Assembly: GCA_028140795.1 (NCBI GenBank)
Contig: JAOIOW010000003.1
Coordinates: 60,663-124,662 of the forward strand
Source: Fidelibacterota bacterium
Lineage (GTDB): Bacteria; Fidelibacterota; Marinisomatia; Marinisomatales; Marinisomataceae
Direction of reading: 5' to 3'
DNA: 64,000 bases
Shown here: piece by piece, positions 9,052 through 17,988 of the stretch
Numbering within the stretch: the stretch's first letter is position 1
Layout: the number at the start of each line of letters is the position of its first letter
The notes under the pieces: generated by a model
What the model was told of the DNA's origin: nothing
Databases searched by the model: none
What the model saw: the letters and a program-made list of their open reading frames with translations, nothing else
Translations under genes and position numbers: made by a program

Positions 9052-9813
9052 TTATTTTTTTAGGTTTTTTACAAAATTTTCAACAACACCCTTTTTTGTA
9101 TCTTTGAGAACTTTTTTTATAACTGCAGATCCAACTACAGCCCCATCTGAAAAACTATTAAACCAATTAACATCATCATTTGTGCTTATACCAAAACCTA
9201 CCATAAATGGCGTTTCGCTATTATCTTTTACTTTTGCTAAGTAGTTCTTCAAATTATTTTTTGAACTCAGGTCATTACCAGTAATACCTAAAATACTTAC
9301 AGCATATATGAGATCTCCTGCAAGTTTTGAAATTTTCTTAATTCTTTTTTCCGAAGTATTTGGAGCTACAAGAAGTATCGGAGAAATATTTTTATTCTTT
9401 AAATTATTACAAAATTCAACAGATTCATCAAGAGGTAAATCTGGTAGAATAACCCCATCAATTTCTGCATCATTACATTTTTTTATGAAATCCTTTGTAC
9501 CCATCCTAAGAATTGGATTATAATAACCCATTAGCGCAATAGGGACATCAGTTTCCTTTCTAATCTCCTTTACTTGTTCAAAAATTTCAAGTAGCGTAAT
9601 TCCATTTTTTAAAGCTATTTCGTTTGCTTCTTGAATAACTGGTCCATCTGCTTGAGGATCTGAAAAAGGAATACCTATCTCAATCATATCAGCTCCTCCT
9701 TTAATTGCTTCCAAAACTAAATTCTTCGTACTATCTTTATTTGGAAAACCTGCAGTAATAAATACTATTAATTTTTTAGAATCTGTTGCAAAAAGTTCTT
9801 TTATTCTATTCAT
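9052..9813 (-). CDS. trpA: Tryptophan synthase alpha chain
   Basis: '[19 protein letters not shown]' and 'GFGIS' motifs. Confidence 0.95.
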
Positions 9814-11018
9814 AATTCAATACCCAATTCCTTTGCAATAGTATTTATATCTTTATCTCCTCTTCCAGATAAATTCAAAATAACATGTTCATTTTTTTTG
9901 ATATTATTATTTTTATTTTTTAAATAAGCAACAGCATGTGCAGTTTCTAAAGCTGGAATTATTCCCTCTTTTTCAGACAACCACTTGAATGCTTCTAACG
10001 CTTCATCATCCGTTGCTGATGAATATTCAACTCTTTTGGTTTTTTGAAGATAACTGTGTTCTGGACCAATTCCTGGATAATCTAAACCTGCAGATAAAGA
10101 ATAAGGTAAAGCAATTTGACCATCCATACTTTGTAGTAACATTGATGCTGCACCATGTAATACACCAAATTCACCCTTCGTAAGAGTAGCAGCATGCTGA
10201 TTTGTATCAATCCCCTTTCCTGCAGCTTCAACTCCAACTATTTTTACATCATCATCAATGAAAGGATAAAATAAGCCAAGAGCATTAGACCCACCACCAA
10301 CACATGCTATAAGTCTATCAGGTAATTTTTTATTAGTCATATCTGTAAATTGTTTTTTTGTTTCAGTACCAATTACAGATTGAAAATCACGAACAAGCAT
10401 TGGGTATGGATGAGGTCCAACAGAAGAACCAATAATGTAGAATGTATCTTCTACATTTGTTACCCAATCCCTAATTGCTTCATTGGTAGCATCTTTTAAA
10501 GTTTTAGATCCAGAAGTAACAGGTATAACTTTTGCACCCATTAAATTAATTTTAAACACATTTAGCTTTTGACGCTCAATATCTTCCTCGCCCATATAAA
10601 CAATACATTCTAAACCAAATTTAGCAGCTGCTGCTGCAGTAGCTACACCATGTTGTCCTGCTCCTGTTTCAGCAATAATTCTTTTTTTTCCCATTCTATG
10701 TGCCAATAAAATTTGTCCAAGGGCATTGTTTATTTTATGTGCACCGGTATGATTTAGATCTTCCCTTTTAAGCCATACATTAAAACCTAGTTCTTCGGAA
10801 ATATTTTTAGCTAAGTATAATGGAGTTGGTCTACCTCCGTAATGTTTAAGCAAATTAAAAAATTCTTTTTGGAAATTTTTATCTTTTTTGCTCTTTAAAT
10901 ATTCCTGCTCTAATTCATCCAATGCAGGAATAAGAGTTTCAGGAACATATTTTCCACCAAATTCTTCAAAATGCCCATACTTATCAGGCATATTATATTT
11001 TTTAACTAAATTATCCAA
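9810..11018 (-). CDS. trpB: Tryptophan synthase beta chain
   Basis: '[11 protein letters not shown]' (PLP lysine) and 'GGGSNA' motifs. Confidence 0.97.
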
Positions 11019-11643
11019 AACTAAACTCCTTCTTTTTTGTTTGTTTTAAAATTTTGACAATCCTAAAGATTTTTGACTTACTTTTTAATCCAGGACTTTT
11101 TTCAACACCACTATTTATATCAACTGCATGAGGATTGATCTGATTAATACCATCCAAAATATTATTTTCATTTAAACCCCCTGATAGTATGATTGGAAGA
11201 TTGAATTTAACATTTTCAATTATTTTCCAATTAAAGATTTTACCAGTGCCTCCAAATTGATTTCTTGTTCTATTATCAAGCAGAATTGCGTGTACATCAT
11301 AATTATTTATTACATTTAAATCACTTTTTTTTGAAACAGATAAAGCTTTTATGACCGGAACTTTGAAATTATTACAAAATTCAGGTGTTTCATTTCCGTG
11401 TAGCTGAATTGCATCAAGATTTAATTCATTTATGACATCATTAATAATATTTTTACTCTCATTTACAAAAATGCCAATTTTTTTTAACCCAGAAGAACTC
11501 ATGCTGATTTTTTTTGCATTTTCTATATCAACACATCTTGGGCTTTTACCGTAAAATATCATCCCAATTGCAGTTGCCCCTGCATTTTTTGCATGCAAAG
11601 CGTCTTTATAATTAGTTATACCGCAAATTTTCAAATCTATCAT
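11011..11643 (-). CDS. trpF: Phosphoribosylanthranilate isomerase
   Basis: 'KICGIT', 'IQLHGNE' and position between trpC and trpB. Confidence 0.9.
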
Positions 11644-12398
11644 AACTCTTTTATAATTCGTTCAAGTTTTTTTCCGGGATTTTTACTTTTCATCAAAGAT
11701 GTTCCCATAAGTATGGCATCATATCCCAACTGCTCAACAATTTTTATTTTTTTAATACTTTTAAAACCACTTTCTGCAACTTTAAGCGAATCTTTAGGTA
11801 GTTTTGGAAAAAATCTCTCAAATCTTGAAAAATCAAGTTCCATTTTTTTTAAATTTCTACAATTCACGCCTACAATTGTAGGACTAAGCTCGTTAATAGC
11901 TAAAAGGTTTTTTCTATCGTGAATTTCTACTAATGTTTCCATTTTTTCATTTAATCCAAAGCTATAAAGGTCTGCCAAATCATTATAGTTCAAGGCTTCA
12001 GCAATTAATAAGAAAGCGTCAGAGCCATGGCTCATTCCTTGTAAAATTTGTTTTTTACTTATGATAAAATCTTTTTGCATAACAGGAATGTTCACTGCAT
12101 TTTTAATATCCTTTAAAAATTTAATATCACCATTAAAAAATCGTCTATCAGTCAGAACAGAAATAGCTGCAGCGCCAGCATTTTCATAATCTTTAGCAAT
12201 TTGAATATGTTCACCCTTTTTAAGAATTATTCCCTCACTTGGTGATGCAAATTTTATTTCTGCAATTATAGATATTTTGCCTCCTTTTAAAGCTTTTTTT
12301 AAACTGAGTCTTTTATAGTTGGAGCTTTCTAAATGTAGTTCAGGAATTTTCTTAATTTCTGTTTTTTTATGATTCAAAATCTTATCTAAAATATTCAC
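11640..12398 (-). CDS. trpC: Indole-3-glycerol-phosphate synthase
   Basis: 'IIAEIKFASPSEG', 'ISVLTD' and 'VGVNCRNL' motifs. Confidence 0.93.
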   Translation of the reverse strand: MNILDKILNHKKTEIKKIPELHLESSNYKRLSLKKALKGGKISIIAEIKFASPSEGIILKKGEHIQIAKDYENAGAAAISVLTDRRFFNGDIKFLKDIKNAVNIPVMQKDFIISKKQILQGMSHGSDAFLLIAEALNYNDLADLYSFGLNEKMETLVEIHDRKNLLAINELSPTIVGVNCRNLKKMELDFSRFERFFPKLPKDSLKVAESGFKSIKKIKIVEQLGYDAILMGTSLMKSKNPGKKLERIIKEL

Positions 12399-13390
12399 TT
12401 TTGAATACCTTTCAATACTTTAAGAGCAGATAACGAATCGACTGATTCTTCCGCTAAAGAATAACCTTCTTTTAAAGACGTTGCTTTACCTCCAACCATG
12501 ATTCCTGCAGCGGCATTCAGCAAAACTATATCTCTGTTAGGACCTTTTTTTCCATTTAAAATATCCAAAATAATTTTTGCATTAATATCTGAAGTACCTC
12601 CCTGTAAATCTTCATGTTTGGACAATGAAATTCCTATAGACTTTGGATCAAATTTTAAATTGATAATTTTACTATCATTTAAAAAATAAGAAATATTAGA
12701 ATCGCAAGTTGTAGTAAGCTCGTCAAGGCCATCGTCTCCGTTAAAAACCATAACATTCTTTGAACCTAAATTTTTTAAAACTTGTGTTTGAATTTTAGTC
12801 AATGATGGTTCAAAAACTCCCATTGCTTGATTTTTAACATTTGCAGGATTACATAATGGACCTAAAATATTGAAAACTGTTTTAATTTTTAATTTACTTC
12901 TAACATTCATAGCATTTTTTACAGCTGGATGAAAATTTGGAGCAAACATGAAACATATATTATTTTTTTCCAAACTTCGAATGCAATTTTCATTTGATTT
13001 ATTTATATCTACGTTCAATGCTTCGAGAACATCAGCTGAACCTGATTTTGATGTCATAGATCTATTACCGTGTTTAGCTACCTTTATTCCTGCTCCAGCC
13101 ACGACAATTGAGGATGCAGTTGAAATATTAAATGTCCCAGAATAATCTCCGCCTGTACCACACATATCAATAGCAGGAAAATTAAGATCTAATTCAATCA
13201 TAGTATGTCGCATAGCTTTTGCAAAACCAGTTATTTCATCAACTGTTTCTCCTTTTGACCTTAAACCAACTAATAAAGCTGCAATTTGAACGTCATCTAG
13301 ATTTCCTTTCATTAATTCCAGCATAATTTCAAAAGCTTCATTCTCGTTGAGATTTTCTTTTTTTACAACTTTTTTTATTGATTCAATCAT
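12395..13390 (-). CDS. trpD: Anthranilate phosphoribosyltransferase
   Basis: 'CGTGGD', 'KHGNRSMTSKSGSADVLEALN' motifs. Confidence 0.95.
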   Translation of the reverse strand: MIESIKKVVKKENLNENEAFEIMLELMKGNLDDVQIAALLVGLRSKGETVDEITGFAKAMRHTMIELDLNFPAIDMCGTGGDYSGTFNISTASSIVVAGAGIKVAKHGNRSMTSKSGSADVLEALNVDINKSNENCIRSLEKNNICFMFAPNFHPAVKNAMNVRSKLKIKTVFNILGPLCNPANVKNQAMGVFEPSLTKIQTQVLKNLGSKNVMVFNGDDGLDELTTTCDSNISYFLNDSKIINLKFDPKSIGISLSKHEDLQGGTSDINAKIILDILNGKKGPNRDIVLLNAAAGIMVGGKATSLKEGYSLAEESVDSLSALKVLKGIQK

Positions 13391-13954
13391 CTATATTTCC
13401 AAAAAATTTTTGATTATGACTTTACCATCTTTTGTAGCAATCGATTCAGGGTGAAATTGAACTCCATAAAGATTTGAAGTCTTGTGTTTAAGTCCCATGA
13501 TGGTTTTATTATCAGTTTCAGCAATTACTTCCAAGCAAGTAGGTAAAGAGGCTTTTTCAACAATTAGCGAATGATATCTAGTGGCATTAAAGCTATCATT
13601 TATACCTTTAAATAATTTTGAACCAAAATGATTAACATTTGAGACTTTACCATGCATAATTTTTTTCGCTTGAACTATTTCACCACCAAAAGCATATCCA
13701 ATTGCCTGATGTCCCAGACAAACACCTAATATTGGAACTTTTTGATAAAAATGTTGAATGACTTCAACAATATTTCCTGCGTTTTCAGGTTTTCCCGGCC
13801 CAGGAGAAATAACTATATGGGAAGGATTAATTTCTTTAACATTTTTTAAGGACGTTTCATCATTTCTTTTGGTAACAATATCTTTTTTTATATCACCAAT
13901 ATATTGCACAAGATTATAAGTAAAGCTATCGTAGTTATCGATAACAAGTATCAT
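13391..13954 (-). CDS. trpG: Anthranilate synthase component II (glutamine amidotransferase)
   Basis: 'GVCLGHQAIG' catalytic Cys and 'QFHPES' motifs. Confidence 0.93.
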   Translation of the reverse strand: MILVIDNYDSFTYNLVQYIGDIKKDIVTKRNDETSLKNVKEINPSHIVISPGPGKPENAGNIVEVIQHFYQKVPILGVCLGHQAIGYAFGGEIVQAKKIMHGKVSNVNHFGSKLFKGINDSFNATRYHSLIVEKASLPTCLEVIAETDNKTIMGLKHKTSNLYGVQFHPESIATKDGKVIIKNFLEI

Positions 13955-15432
13955 TTTATCAACCCATTTTCAGCAAGATCAATTGCAGCATTCATGACTT
14001 TTGCTTTATTTACAGTTTCATCATACTCTTTTGATGGAATCGAATCATAAACAATACCAGCTCCAGCTTGAAAGTATGCAATTTCGTTTTTTAAAATCAT
14101 AGTTCTTATTGAGATGCAAGTGTTTAAGTTTCCGTTAAAATCTATAAAACCAATCGCTCCTGAGAAAATACCCCTACTATCATTTTCTAATTCATTAATT
14201 ATCTCCATTGCTCTTATCTTTGGTGCTCCTGAAACTGTACCGGCAGGAAAACCACTTTTTAAAGCATCAAAAATGTTTTTATCTTTCATAAGTTTTCCTC
14301 TGACATCTGAAACGATGTGCATCACATGTGAATACATCTCAATATTCATTTTTTCTTTAATTTTGACACTATCAAATTCAGAAACTCTTCCAACATCATT
14401 TCTTCCTAAATCAAGCAACATCAAGTGTTCAGCTAATTCCTTTTTATCGTTTAACAAATCTTGAGCATTTCTTTCATCTTCAATTGCATTTTTACCCCTC
14501 AATCTAGTACCAGCTATTGGACGAATTTCAACTTCACCTTCTTGAACTTTAATCATAAGCTCAGGAGAAGCACCAATAACATCAAATGAATCAATTTTTA
14601 AATGGAACATATATGGTGAAGGATTAATAGACCTTAATGCTCTGTAAACATTCAAAGGTTCTGATAAGGTTTTTCGCTCAAATCTTTGACTCAAAACAAC
14701 TTGAAAAATATCGCCAGACTTAACATATTTTTTTGCTTTATTTACAATTTTTTCAAATTCACTTTTTTTAAAGTTAGAGATTGTCGGAAATGATTTTGTA
14801 ACTAATGGAGTTCTAAATTCGTGATTCGAATGTAATAAATTTCCAATTGAATCAACTCTAGAATTAGCCTCATCAAAAAGTTCATTTAAATTTTCACTTC
14901 TTTCAAGATTGACGTTTGATACTACAATGGCGTCACCATTTAAGTGATCAAAAACTATTATGTCTTCAAAAAGCATAAATTTTGAATCAGGTATTTGTAA
15001 ATATTTCGTTTTTTTAACTGGAACATTTTCGAAAAAATCAATCATTTCATATCCAAAGTAACCAACAATTCCTCCTGTAAAATGTGGAAGTTGATCTAGT
15101 TTTTGGCTTTTATGTGAATCATTTAAATTTTTCAAAAAATCAAAGAAGTTAGCATCTATTTTTTTTCGTTTACCATTAATAACCTCAAATAAAGACCTCT
15201 GGTCATATTCAAAGATCCTTGATGGATTTATGCCAACATAAGAATATCTACCATTTTTCTTTGCTTTCTCCACAGATTCAAGAATGAATCCGTAATCGGA
15301 GTGCATTGATAAATTTGCCCAAGCTGCAGTAGGTGTAATAGTATCTGCCATTATTCTTTTGAAAAAAGGCACAACTTTTCTTCCATCTTTTGCAAGCAAG
15401 TTAAATTCTTTTTTTGATAATTTATTTTTCAT
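13951..15432 (-). CDS. trpE: Anthranilate synthase component I
   Basis: 'LESVE', 'PSPYMF', 'GTVSGAPKIRAMEII' and 'GAGIV' motifs. Confidence 0.95.
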   Translation of the reverse strand: MKNKLSKKEFNLLAKDGRKVVPFFKRIMADTITPTAAWANLSMHSDYGFILESVEKAKKNGRYSYVGINPSRIFEYDQRSLFEVINGKRKKIDANFFDFLKNLNDSHKSQKLDQLPHFTGGIVGYFGYEMIDFFENVPVKKTKYLQIPDSKFMLFEDIIVFDHLNGDAIVVSNVNLERSENLNELFDEANSRVDSIGNLLHSNHEFRTPLVTKSFPTISNFKKSEFEKIVNKAKKYVKSGDIFQVVLSQRFERKTLSEPLNVYRALRSINPSPYMFHLKIDSFDVIGASPELMIKVQEGEVEIRPIAGTRLRGKNAIEDERNAQDLLNDKKELAEHLMLLDLGRNDVGRVSEFDSVKIKEKMNIEMYSHVMHIVSDVRGKLMKDKNIFDALKSGFPAGTVSGAPKIRAMEIINELENDSRGIFSGAIGFIDFNGNLNTCISIRTMILKNEIAYFQAGAGIVYDSIPSKEYDETVNKAKVMNAAIDLAENGLIK

Positions 15433-15439
15433 TTTATAT

Positions 15440-15466
15440 AAAAAAAAACCCCGATAAACGGGGTTT
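15440..15466 (-). terminator. Intrinsic terminator hairpin plus U-tract (terminator arm of the trp attenuator)
   Basis: Minus-strand RNA reads AAACCCCG-UUUAU-CGGGGUUU followed by more U, giving nine consecutive U overall. The tract ends 7 nt before the trpE ATG at 15432. Confidence 0.75.
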
Positions 15467-15492
15467 CAAAATCTTGTTAACATGAACTTGGC

Positions 15493-15552
15493 TTACAAGA
15501 CAGATCCCCCGACTTGAAAATACCACTTCCATGTTTTTGAGTTATTTTTCAC
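15493..15552 (-). CDS. Candidate 19-aa trp leader peptide (M)KNNSKTWKWYFQVGGSVL
   Basis: GTG at 15552 is the only possible start in this frame, because an in-frame TAA lies 4 codons upstream. Trp codons are at 15531-15529 and 15525-15523. TAA is at 15495-15493. Codons 14-16 contain CGGGG (15511-15507), which can pair with CCCCG in the 5' arm of the terminator. GUCUUG/CAAGAU can extend that pairing. Confidence 0.5.
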   Translation of the reverse strand: MKNNSKTWKWYFQVGGSVL

Positions 15553-15591
15553 GAGAAAATATTAAAACATAAAATAAAATTTTGCAAATAC

Positions 15592-17988
15592 TTATTTTGA
15601 TTTGAATACTAATTTTGATGATTTTGAAGAATTTACAGCATCATAAGTAAACATAAATGGCTTGAATTCTCCTCTATTATACATCTCTGTTTGATCACGA
15701 TAATGTTTGGATCTAAATAATCCAGATTGCCCAGTTGGAAGTATGCTAAAACCATTATCAAAATCAGAAAAATCAATTATTCTTCTCATTGAGGAACCTG
15801 CTCGAACATCAAAAGGCTTGCTAACAGAATAGCTTGCAGCTCTAGGAGTCATTTCTGAGCCTGCCATTGGAAATGGTCCAACACTAAAATTTATTAATCT
15901 TTGAACCAGAGGATCTGCATCTAAATTATGTTCATAAGTAACTTGATGAACATCTCCCCATATAAGTTCTGAAGGATTTCCATATTTATCTTTAAGAAAA
16001 ATAAATGCGTCTTCAAAAGACTTGTTCACAATATCGTTAAGAGTCTCTTTTTTGACAGTTTTTACATTATCAACCCAAAGATTAGTCTTACCATCAAAAA
16101 TGCTTCTAATTGCTTGAGTTCTTATGTATTTAAGGCTATAAAATGTATCAAATGAACCATCACCAAAGCTCTGCAACTCATCTTGAAATATATTTTGAAC
16201 AAGGTGAATATAAATTGCATGAAATGCAACAGCCCCTTTTGAATCTAATGATTCAACACCATCCCAATCTTTTAGCATTTCATATATTTTATCTGCGTTA
16301 TCTGAAAAACCTAACGTATAGTTCTGAACAAAAAGTGGAGCGTATTGTTGGCCAAATGGAGCAGTTACTTCATTAAGAATAGACTTCATATCTTCAGTTG
16401 ATAATTTTATGTCCGTGTTTAATCTCCTATCAATTTGAGTAGCTCTACTAGGATCAGCCCAATATCTGGATATATAATAAGGATATTCGTTACCAACAAT
16501 TTTATTATTTCCGTTTGATATATATCCTTTTTCAGGATTAAAAGAGAATGGCATTTCATCAAAAGGAATGTATCCTTGCCAATCATACTTAGTTGTAGTT
16601 CCATCAAAAGGAACAAGTTTATCAGCATCAAGTCTGATAGGAATTTTTGTACTTGGTCTCCATCCAATATTTCCTTCTTTATCAGCGTACGTCCAATTTT
16701 GTCCAGGAGCTCCAAACAACTTTGAAGCTTCATTAAAATCTTCCCAATTTTTTGCTTTTGCAAGCATAAATAAGCCAGTGGTTTCGTCAAACGCATCAAA
16801 TTCTGTCCATCTAAATGATATAGCTTTATTCAAAGCTTTGGCGTCTCGATGTATTTCAGATATGATTGGACCTCTATGAGTAGATCTAATAATAATTTTA
16901 CGCTTAGAACCTGATTTAAGAACCAATTCTTCTTCTTCAATTATTAAATCTCTCCATTCACCATCAACATAATATTGTGTTTGATCTTCGTTTAATGATT
17001 CAATATAAAAATCCATATCATCTGTCATGACATTTGTAAAGCCCCATCCAATATTTTCATTATGTCCTATTACAGGCAAAGGAATACCATACAAACCATA
17101 ACCTCCAAAGTTATAATTATTACTTTTTAAACGAATTTCATACCACCAAGGAGGTAAATTGTATGCAAGATGTGGATCATTAGCTAGTAAAGGCTTACCA
17201 GATTTGGTTTTTGTTCCAGAAACTGCCCATGCGTTAGAACCGTAACCATCTCTATCAGTTTTTAACAAATTTCTCAAATTTTCAGTATCGCTGGCATACT
17301 GCTTAAATGATTTTAGTAACACGTCATTTGAAGAGATAGTAACAAAATTTGGATCATAAGATGGTAAAATTTCTGATAAATAATCTGGACCAAGTTGTTC
17401 ATTAATTGCTCCAAAGAATAGTTCAGAATCCCATCCTCCTTGCAATTCCCAAGCCATCATTGTACTTAATGCAACAATGTCAATAGGTTCAAAAGTAGGA
17501 AGTTCATCTATTTGTAATAATTTAAATTCAAGCGGAAATTCTGTTGGAGATAAACTTTGGACATAGGCATTTATTCCATAGCACGTGTCTTCTAAGTGTG
17601 CGAGAATATCTGAAGGTACTTTGTTCAAAGTTTTTTGAGCAATTTTTTCAAAACCAAGTGTTCTTAAAAAACGATCTTCTGTAAAAAGTGTATCATTAAC
17701 AACAGCACTAAGTTGACCTTTATATGCATATTTTAAAAAGGCCATTTGAAATAATCTATCTCTAGCACCCAAATAACCTGCTACTTTAAACATATCAGAA
17801 TCGCTGACAGCAAAAACGCTTGGAACGCCATAATCATCGAACAATACTTCCACATCATCTGATAATGAAAGCTCTTCATTTATGCCTTCATACGAAACTT
17901 CTACTGGACTCAAAAAAACATTTACAGCATAATTTATTATTATGAATAAAGATATTATTAAAAATAGAATTTTATAGCGCGTCCCCAT
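15592..17988 (-). CDS. Penicillin/acyl-homoserine-lactone acylase family protein (Ntn hydrolase, S45)
   Basis: Family-typical 'GYGSNAWAVSG...GKPLLANDPHL' (autoprocessing Ser nucleophile) and an N-terminal signal/anchor. I place the start at ATG 17988. The track's first codon at 18003 is TTG. Confidence 0.85.
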   Translation of the reverse strand: MGTRYKILFLIISLFIIINYAVNVFLSPVEVSYEGINEELSLSDDVEVLFDDYGVPSVFAVSDSDMFKVAGYLGARDRLFQMAFLKYAYKGQLSAVVNDTLFTEDRFLRTLGFEKIAQKTLNKVPSDILAHLEDTCYGINAYVQSLSPTEFPLEFKLLQIDELPTFEPIDIVALSTMMAWELQGGWDSELFFGAINEQLGPDYLSEILPSYDPNFVTISSNDVLLKSFKQYASDTENLRNLLKTDRDGYGSNAWAVSGTKTKSGKPLLANDPHLAYNLPPWWYEIRLKSNNYNFGGYGLYGIPLPVIGHNENIGWGFTNVMTDDMDFYIESLNEDQTQYYVDGEWRDLIIEEEELVLKSGSKRKIIIRSTHRGPIISEIHRDAKALNKAISFRWTEFDAFDETTGLFMLAKAKNWEDFNEASKLFGAPGQNWTYADKEGNIGWRPSTKIPIRLDADKLVPFDGTTTKYDWQGYIPFDEMPFSFNPEKGYISNGNNKIVGNEYPYYISRYWADPSRATQIDRRLNTDIKLSTEDMKSILNEVTAPFGQQYAPLFVQNYTLGFSDNADKIYEMLKDWDGVESLDSKGAVAFHAIYIHLVQNIFQDELQSFGDGSFDTFYSLKYIRTQAIRSIFDGKTNLWVDNVKTVKKETLNDIVNKSFEDAFIFLKDKYGNPSELIWGDVHQVTYEHNLDADPLVQRLINFSVGPFPMAGSEMTPRAASYSVSKPFDVRAGSSMRRIIDFSDFDNGFSILPTGQSGLFRSKHYRDQTEMYNRGEFKPFMFTYDAVNSSKSSKLVFKSK

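Follow-up and report, generated by a model that had tools for sequence, protein, structure and literature searches.

Classic attenuation of tryptophan genes by a leader peptide has been described outside the Proteobacteria in Corynebacterium glutamicum and Streptomyces venezuelae (PMC1262725, PMC4833913). As of 2010, leader-peptide systems were stated only for Proteobacteria, Actinobacteria and a new case in Firmicutes (PMC2965389), and "strong clues" of leader-peptide attenuators upstream of amino-acid operons have been reported for Flavobacterium psychrophilum (PMC9723704). Additionally, leaderless leaders beginning with 5'-AUG or 5'-GUG have been documented for trpL of Sinorhizobium meliloti (PMC6614838), for Deinococcus deserti (PMC4007540), where the transcription start of the trpEGD leader lies at -1, and for mycobacteria (bioRxiv 10.1101/834739). 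In the literature, no paper was found that links Marinimicrobia to leader peptides. Here, we describe an element directly upstream of trpE in a 64,000-nucleotide stretch of contig JAOIOW010000003.1 (hereafter, the window) from a member of Candidatus Marinimicrobia (SAR406). The sequence analysed, minus strand 15591-15433, comprises the 159 nt directly 5' of trpE and very probably acts as a ribosome-mediated (leader-peptide) transcription attenuator of trpEGDCFBA, as judged from modelled folds and from relatives. Marinimicrobia are abundant in the ocean but uncultured, and next to nothing is known of how they regulate their genes; the element provides a concrete, testable cis-regulator for them.

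Comparison of the whole 64-kb window with Rfam at gathering thresholds gave 0 matches. When 15380-15650 was searched with E-values up to 10, neither RF00513 (Trp_leader) nor a T-box was found; the sub-threshold matches were driven by the terminator and included the rimP leader (25 bits vs a threshold of 47) and Phe_leader (18 vs 55). It is analogous to the enterobacterial family RF00513 without belonging to it.

The trp leader region and its alternative folds

The element precedes trpE, trpG, trpD, trpC, trpF, trpB and trpA, which occupy 9052-15432 on the minus strand and were identified by Pfam matches with E-values of 1e-45 to 1e-90. Its trpL-like open reading frame (ORF; 15552-15493, minus strand) consists of GTG (15552-15550), 18 codons and TAA (15495-15493), encodes (M)KNNSKTWKWYFQVGGSVL and is kept in frame in relatives. 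The putative regulatory codons TGG-AAG-TGG (Trp8, Lys9 and Trp10) lie at 15531-15523, with the two TGG at 15531-15529 and 15525-15523. This ORF had been proposed in a preliminary description made from the letters of the window, and its sequence and positions were confirmed base for base. With a G+C content of 31% in the window and TGG accounting for 0.95% of codons, the probability of finding at least two TGG within 19 codons by chance is ~1.4%, and WW or WxW is present in just 7 of the 1365 short ORFs of the window. The short ORF directly before trpEGDCFBA is, in this way, enriched in cognate (Trp) codons. An alternative ORF in the +1 frame, which opens at the ATG in ACATGG and reads across the terminator as far as a TAA shortly before trpE, was rejected because it contains no Trp codons and does not occur in clade B (one of two groups of relatives described below), where that ATG is missing.

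An intrinsic terminator is predicted downstream of the leader ORF and ahead of trpE, at 15467-15440 (minus strand), formed by GAAACCCCG, the loop UUUAU and CGGGGUUUU, and ending in a U9 tract. Its stem comprises 9 pairs, 5 of them G-C, with a folding energy of -13.1 kcal/mol; the hairpin proper spans 15467-15445, the U9 tract ends at 15440, and 7 nt (ATATAAA) lead from there to the trpE ATG at 15432. The preliminary description had recorded an 8-bp hairpin with a U-tract at this distance from trpE, which was borne out with one more base pair. The 159-nt region folds more stably than its shuffled versions (z = -3.2). Furthermore, a terminator scan revealed no second strong terminator-like site on the minus strand between 8.5 and 18.5 kb, and only two attenuator-type terminators, the trp hairpin among them, were counted in the whole 64 kb.

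The competing antiterminator is formed by a 5' arm, CGGGGGAUCUGUCUUGUAAGC (15511-15491, minus strand), which spans the final codons of the leader together with its stop, and a 3' arm, GUUAACAAGAUUUUGAAACCCCG (15481-15459), which overlaps the 5' arm of the terminator. Secondary-structure prediction of 15591-15433, as suggested in the preliminary description, yielded these two mutually exclusive folds. For nascent transcripts, RNA ending at the terminator loop was folded, a kinetic proxy chosen after folding of the full transcript, and the ribosome was modelled by masking 28-30 nt around the A-site codon. The minimum-energy fold of the nascent RNA was the antiterminator, at -18.4 to -19.0 kcal/mol vs -13.1 for the terminator, in which CGGGG..AU.GUCUUGU.AGC pairs with GUU.ACAAGAU..GA..CCCCG and the CGGGG of the leader lies at 15511-15507. 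The pairing of CGGGG with CCCCG and of GUCUUG with CAAGAU, anticipated by inspection, is therefore the optimal nascent fold. Masking with either Trp codon in the A site left the antiterminator unchanged, and a ribosome placed at UAA abolished it, because UAA sits inside its 5' arm, leaving only residual structures of ~-5 kcal/mol. The same three scenarios had the same outcome in 18 of 18 lineages, whose antiterminators (-14 to -23 kcal/mol) capture 5-8 bases of the 9-10-base terminator arm. In silico, the geometry of an attenuator with exclusive antiterminator and terminator, free at the Trp codons and masked at the stop codon, is present, and the earlier claim that the outcome depends on ribosome position is supported by the constrained folds in the window and in these lineages.

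In the proposed mechanism, transcription would start at or within a couple of bases of GTG 15552, from the promoter TTGCAA-N17-TAATAT-N6, and the mRNA on which the 19-codon leader ORF is read would be leaderless or nearly so. Under a shortage of charged tRNA-Trp, the ribosome would stall with Trp8 or Trp10 in its A site and leave CGGGG...GUCUUGU (15511-15495) exposed; this arm could then pair with ACAAGAU...CCCCG (15477-15459) once transcribed, capturing the terminator 5' arm and allowing read-through into trpE. When Trp is plentiful, the ribosome would reach UAA and cover the antiterminator 5' arm, CCCCG would pair with the downstream CGGGG, and the hairpin with its U9 tract would form and stop transcription 7 nt before trpE, with a predicted terminated leader transcript of ~113 nt. 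Actual translation of the leader and the response to Trp are inferred from these models. Such a mechanism would imply close coupling of transcription and translation, with the Trp supply sensed through tRNA charging.

A further structure was observed in the minimum-energy fold of the full-length transcript (15535-15479, minus strand), where AACAUGGAAGUGGU pairs with GCCAAGUUCAUGUU and joins the Trp-codon segment to the spacer, enclosing a small hairpin (CAAG.CGG/CUG.CUUG) that sequesters CGG and CUUG. The AACAUGGAAGUGGU/GCCAAGUUCAUGUU helix is 92% paired in clade A (the close relatives), by one-sided changes only, and takes another form in clade B; it could tentatively be read as an anti-antiterminator or pause structure. 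In clade B leaders, a conserved small hairpin, UGGUU-UUUU-AACCA, was observed at +38 to +53 from the start codon (e.g., L019:1350-1365). It includes the second Trp codon, occurs with the variants GGUU/AGCC and UUGGU/GCCAA, and is not found in this form in clade A; it may be a pause or anti-antiterminator element.

Relatives, covariation and the leader start

The trpE upstream regions of relatives, labelled with L numbers, were gathered from a TrpE-guided scan of reference genomes, a metagenome scan and the contigs of chosen TrpE homologues. The census covered the 36 loci with a TrpE at least 47% identical to that of the window (100% in L001). This comparative search, which the preliminary description had called for, identified a short in-frame ORF with 1-3 Trp codons together with a terminator in 31 of the 36 loci, two of them more remote. 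Three other loci have too little upstream DNA, and L015 among them shows leader and terminator within 130 nt. A terminator was seen in 34 of the 36 loci; none was detected in L029 or in the available upstream stretches of L017 and L031, the latter having no hairpin in its 88 nt of upstream sequence. In the case of L029, a Marinimicrobia-like lineage (TrpE 57% identical), an A/T-rich spacer of ~130 nt between chorismate mutase and trpE contains neither leader ORF nor terminator, which indicates that the attenuator is not universal in the phylum. Each relative with the hairpin also has in-frame Trp codons; a hairpin conserved without them, the pattern that the preliminary description had named as counting against its proposal, was found in none.

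Clade A comprises nine distinct sequences with TrpE 80-100% identical to that of the window. All nine start with GTG and share W-x-W, the run of GGGG, the stop codon and the terminator, with no variation in the TGG codons or in any helix arm. The substitutions fall in the N-terminal leader codons, the codon between the Trp codons (AAG, ATA, AAA or AAT), the loop of the terminator and the spacer that follows the stop codon. At the sequence level, this is the pattern expected of a leader ORF whose peptide is unimportant, unlike its Trp codons and RNA arms.

Clade B (TrpE ~57-60% identical) is characterized by an ATG-started ORF of 22 codons, e.g., MNNMNTKNYYSWYWFFNQEGVS, whose UAG stop codon lies inside the GGGGUUUCAUAGUC arm and is followed by the terminator AAACCCCG/CGGGGUUU with U9. 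Its Trp motifs are W-Y-W, W-N-W, W-C-W, W-D-W, W-F-W or W-E-W, and other relatives contain W-C-E-W, a single W, WW, WWW or WWWW. The gene 5' of the element differs between the clades, being a penicillin amidase in clade A and a chorismate mutase in clade B, and the element stays with trpE in both. A likeness of TTGCAAAA between the two clades was set aside as partly coincidental, because the clade B copy falls within the coding end of chorismate mutase.

Several side observations concern single loci or more distant lineages. In L102 (L102:662-793), which together with L029 and the three short loci makes up the five census loci outside the 31, the leader stop TAG has become CAG with the rest kept. 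Its ORF therefore crosses the antiterminator as far as a TGA in the terminator loop, which reflects either natural deregulation or an error in assembly. Metagenome contigs of other lineages (TrpE 42-49% identical) also contain trpE-upstream leaders with WWWW, WWW or WW. A strong terminator was observed in each member of the WWWW group (L063, L067, L078 and L089), in L035 and in L037. No terminator was detected in L049, L075, L070 and L082, and a weak, distant one was found in L088. At the Omnitrophota trpE loci (L010-L013), no leader was found and a gene abuts trpE.

Covariation was assessed separately for the two clades. In clade A, the helices are 91-100% paired with zero double changes; the terminator stem is paired in 100% of cells, and the antiterminator in 93.5%, vs 32-50% when the partners were slid. 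In clade B, an unbiased MAFFT alignment gave an antiterminator paired in 84% of cells, vs 31-41% when slid, and 11 double-change cells, a level reached in 3 of 500 shuffles in counts that ignore phylogeny. The register in clade B is fixed by the invariant flanks UAGUC/GACU, and at the base before the stop codon 6 sequences have an A-U pair, 8 have G-C and 1 has G-U, none being mismatched. Individual loci display further paired replacements, such as GGGUUC/GAACCC for GGGGUUU/AAACCCC in L100 and the compensatory variant CCCCA/UGGGG in the terminator of L098. RNAalifold, applied to nascent segments of both clades with no structure supplied, recovered the inner antiterminator helix. One of its pairs is formed as G-C in 7 sequences, as C-G in 6 and as A-U in 5, and a second pair as A-U in 12 and as U-A in 6, again in counts that ignore phylogeny. 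The alignments thus point to both clades forming the same antiterminator helix out of different sequences. MAFFT places the clade B terminator and, between clades, the run of GGGG in the wrong register, and hence covariation of the outer helix across the clades carries no formal score.

Upstream of the leader, a -35-like hexamer, TTGCAA (15587-15582, minus strand), lies 17 nt before a -10-like hexamer, TAATAT (15564-15559), which is kept in clades A and B and precedes the GTG by 6 nt; a promoter function is suggested by this arrangement. The pattern TTGnnn-N17/18-TAATAT was found in both clades, counting for clade B the TTG that lies 17-18 nt from TAATAT, and in almost every lineage 5-8 nt separate its end from the start codon, with unconserved spacers. 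Two bases upstream of the TAATAT position, L007 reads TGnTATAAT and L016 reads TGnCATAAT. In the window, the full pattern precedes 1.4% of ATG/GTG triplets and is rare at ordinary gene starts. Since the spacing from box to start codon is conserved, it is plausible that transcription begins at or beside the leader start codon and that the leader ORF is leaderless.

The preliminary description had listed the GTG start and the lack of a Shine-Dalgarno sequence as weak points. Both features are present as described, and their weight is largely removed: GTG is kept in 9 of 9 clade A sequences, clade B has ATG at the same position relative to the box, and the conserved box just before the start codon would account for both the GTG and the missing Shine-Dalgarno sequence. 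Additionally, a 4-mer Shine-Dalgarno core was found upstream of 18 of the 53 long window ORFs, about a third (background 11%). The trpE start itself has no Shine-Dalgarno sequence and lies in an A/U-rich region.

Weighing the explanations

Several observations weigh against a leader-peptide attenuator. In the full-length transcript, the terminator fold is optimal in every ribosome scenario, and therefore the switch must be kinetic, as in E. coli. The nascent RNA prefers the antiterminator even without a ribosome, so the basal behaviour may differ from the superattenuation of E. coli. Clade A alone shows no compensatory change, and the window helices therefore rest on conservation and on the comparison between clades. 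Furthermore, only one Trp codon is present in L026, L030, L034 and L036, and in E. coli leaderless mRNAs are initiated only weakly at GUG. The alternatives were weighed with these points in view. The hairpin might be the constitutive terminator of the penicillin-amidase gene, with a fortuitous Trp-codon ORF: this gene shares the strand and has its end at 15592, the terminator scan found no terminator for it besides the attenuator hairpin, and two TGG in 19 codons do arise by chance at the rate given above. However, the 7 nt from the U tract to the ATG leave no space for a trp promoter, and therefore all trp transcription must cross the hairpin; ORF and hairpin accompany trpE in clade B despite another upstream gene, the Trp codons are in frame in all hairpin-bearing relatives, and the antiterminator covaries. 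We regard this explanation as highly improbable. Equally hard to credit is a switch set not by the ribosome but by a trans-acting Trp sensor, either a TRAP-like protein or uncharged tRNA-Trp acting through a T-box, although TRAP and T-boxes both regulate trp genes in Firmicutes. TRAP requires 9-11 (G/U)AG triplets, set 2-3 nt apart and overlapping the antiterminator. The region 15591-15433 contains zero GAG or UAG triplets, and a TRAP-regulated trp leader of the Bacillus type, as known from the control of trp genes by TRAP and anti-TRAP (PMC10327191), was rejected on this ground. No T-box or other Rfam match was obtained (at gathering score, or with E-values up to 10 for the families named above), and a leader transcript of only ~113 nt is much shorter than a T-box, so the element was not assigned to this riboswitch class either. 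A trans-acting factor would also leave unexplained why the Trp codons are conserved in frame and why the leader stop lies inside the antiterminator arm.

Another explanation assigns the element chiefly to the translation of trpE, through ribosome access or re-initiation, or to Rho, instead of intrinsic termination. The hairpin does adjoin the A/U-rich trpE start region with its missing Shine-Dalgarno sequence, and leader ORFs have been proposed to raise downstream translation through re-initiation (PMC4833913). Yet the 60 nt from the leader stop to the trpE ATG are far for re-initiation, a G+C-rich stem with nine U is a canonical intrinsic terminator kept in every lineage, and the closeness of hairpin and ATG is unconserved, with 52-83 nt from terminator to trpE in L008 and L019; this option appears very unlikely. 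A variant of the attenuator itself deserves more weight, namely one in which the ORF is not leaderless, transcription starts further upstream (e.g., by amidase read-through or from a promoter of the Bacteroidetes type), and initiation without a Shine-Dalgarno sequence takes place on an A/U-rich 5' untranslated region (UTR). Marinimicrobia are members of the FCB group, and most window genes have no Shine-Dalgarno core. Translation in Bacteroidetes starts without Shine-Dalgarno sequences, and leaderless mRNAs are scarce there, at 5.5% in F. psychrophilum (PMC9723704), which speaks for this variant. Against it, TTGnnn-N17/18-TAATAT stands at a fixed distance from the start across clades with different spacers, recurs at a second (Tyr/Phe) leader of the window and at L106 and L107, and is rare at ordinary window genes. 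We consider this variant unlikely, though well ahead of the other alternatives, and retain ribosome-mediated attenuation with a plausibly leaderless leader ORF.

A probable second attenuator and comparison with known systems

A second attenuator with the same blueprint was observed at 9022-8892 on the minus strand, between trpA (stop at 9052) and a chorismate mutase gene. A terminator scan limited to loops of at most 8 nt overlooked it, and a more tolerant scan detected it. It consists of a -10-like TAATAT (9022-9017) placed 6 nt before an ATG, a leader ORF from ATG 9010 to TGA 8951 encoding MKNFNNYYFYFRCRGTIGA with a YYFYF run, an antiterminator in which GGGGGACUAUAG pairs with CUAUAGAAACCC, and a terminator at 8925-8892 (-14.7 kcal/mol, U9 tract). 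The element is kept with covarying stems in L106 (MSKFYNYYFYFRSRGNVDA) and L107 (MKSNQNFYYYFNGRGYVGT), and 89 of 148 aligned positions (~60%, z = 5.3) are identical between the second and the trp attenuator. It probably also terminates transcription of the trp operon. For chorismate mutase, the mechanically assigned ORF start, ATG 8909 (ORF 8909-8619), falls in the terminator loop; the true start is probably ATG 8882, after GGAGGAATT, one of the few clear Shine-Dalgarno sites of the window, giving an 87-aa protein. Like the E. coli pheA leader (pheL; RF01859, Phe_leader), this region places a terminator and a leader ORF with many aromatic codons before a chorismate mutase gene. Unlike pheL, it has a Tyr/Phe mix (YYFYF), is followed by chorismate mutase and the whole shikimate pathway, and gives no above-threshold Rfam match.

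The minus strand from 15552 to 2078 forms one continuous aromatic amino-acid gene array. It comprises trpEGDCFBA, chorismate mutase, class II DAHP synthase, EPSP synthase, shikimate dehydrogenase, chorismate synthase, shikimate kinase, DHQ synthase and type II dehydroquinase, down to 2078. The window lineage has two modules of identical geometry in this array, with W-x-W before trpEGDCFBA and YYFYF before chorismate mutase and the shikimate pathway. The gene order differs in clade B (L100-L105 and L108-L109), where chorismate mutase is followed by the leader and trpEGDCFBA. There, trpA runs straight into prephenate dehydratase (pheA-like), prephenate dehydrogenase (tyrA-like), DAHP synthase, EPSP synthase and shikimate dehydrogenase. 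Besides its two Trp codons, the single leader of clade B (e.g., NYYSWYWFF) contains 5-6 Tyr/Phe codons, which suggests multivalent aromatic attenuation. As a tentative extension, which we rate as possible and somewhat short of probable, one reusable leaderless attenuator module could serve the whole aromatic array, with its specificity set by swapped regulatory codons and the YYxWYWFF leader of clade B acting as a multivalent sensor of Tyr, Trp and Phe.

With regard to described systems, the nearest published taxon is F. psychrophilum (FCB group), and the sequences of the actinobacterial and flavobacterial leaders are unrelated to the element described here. The D. deserti leaders and the mycobacterial polycysteine short ORFs have experimentally mapped starts, whereas the start of the present leader is deduced from the spacing between box and start codon. 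The element resembles trpL/rnTrpL of S. meliloti in having a Trp-codon leader ORF, inferred here to be leaderless, and a terminator before trpE(G) (PMC6614838); S. meliloti belongs to another phylum, has a different sequence, and its released attenuator RNA and leader peptide act in trans (PMC6614838, PMC7298713). No sequence or covariance-model similarity to E. coli trpL (RF00513) was detectable. The Trp codons are arranged as W-x-W instead of in tandem, and the probably leaderless GTG start without a Shine-Dalgarno sequence differs from E. coli trpL, which has a Shine-Dalgarno sequence and a 5' UTR. A 1:2 anti-antiterminator of the E. coli type is only faintly indicated. The finding offers a route to the annotation of small trpL-like ORFs currently overlooked by gene callers and by Rfam. 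With E. coli trpL, the element shares a short leader ORF with two Trp codons, a stop codon at which the terminating ribosome can block the antiterminator, exclusive antiterminator and terminator hairpins, a terminator just before trpE and, as proposed here, read-through upon stalling. Attenuation of the classic Yanofsky type, its leader ORF probably leaderless, would accordingly operate in this phylum as well, with the understanding of the mechanism itself unchanged.

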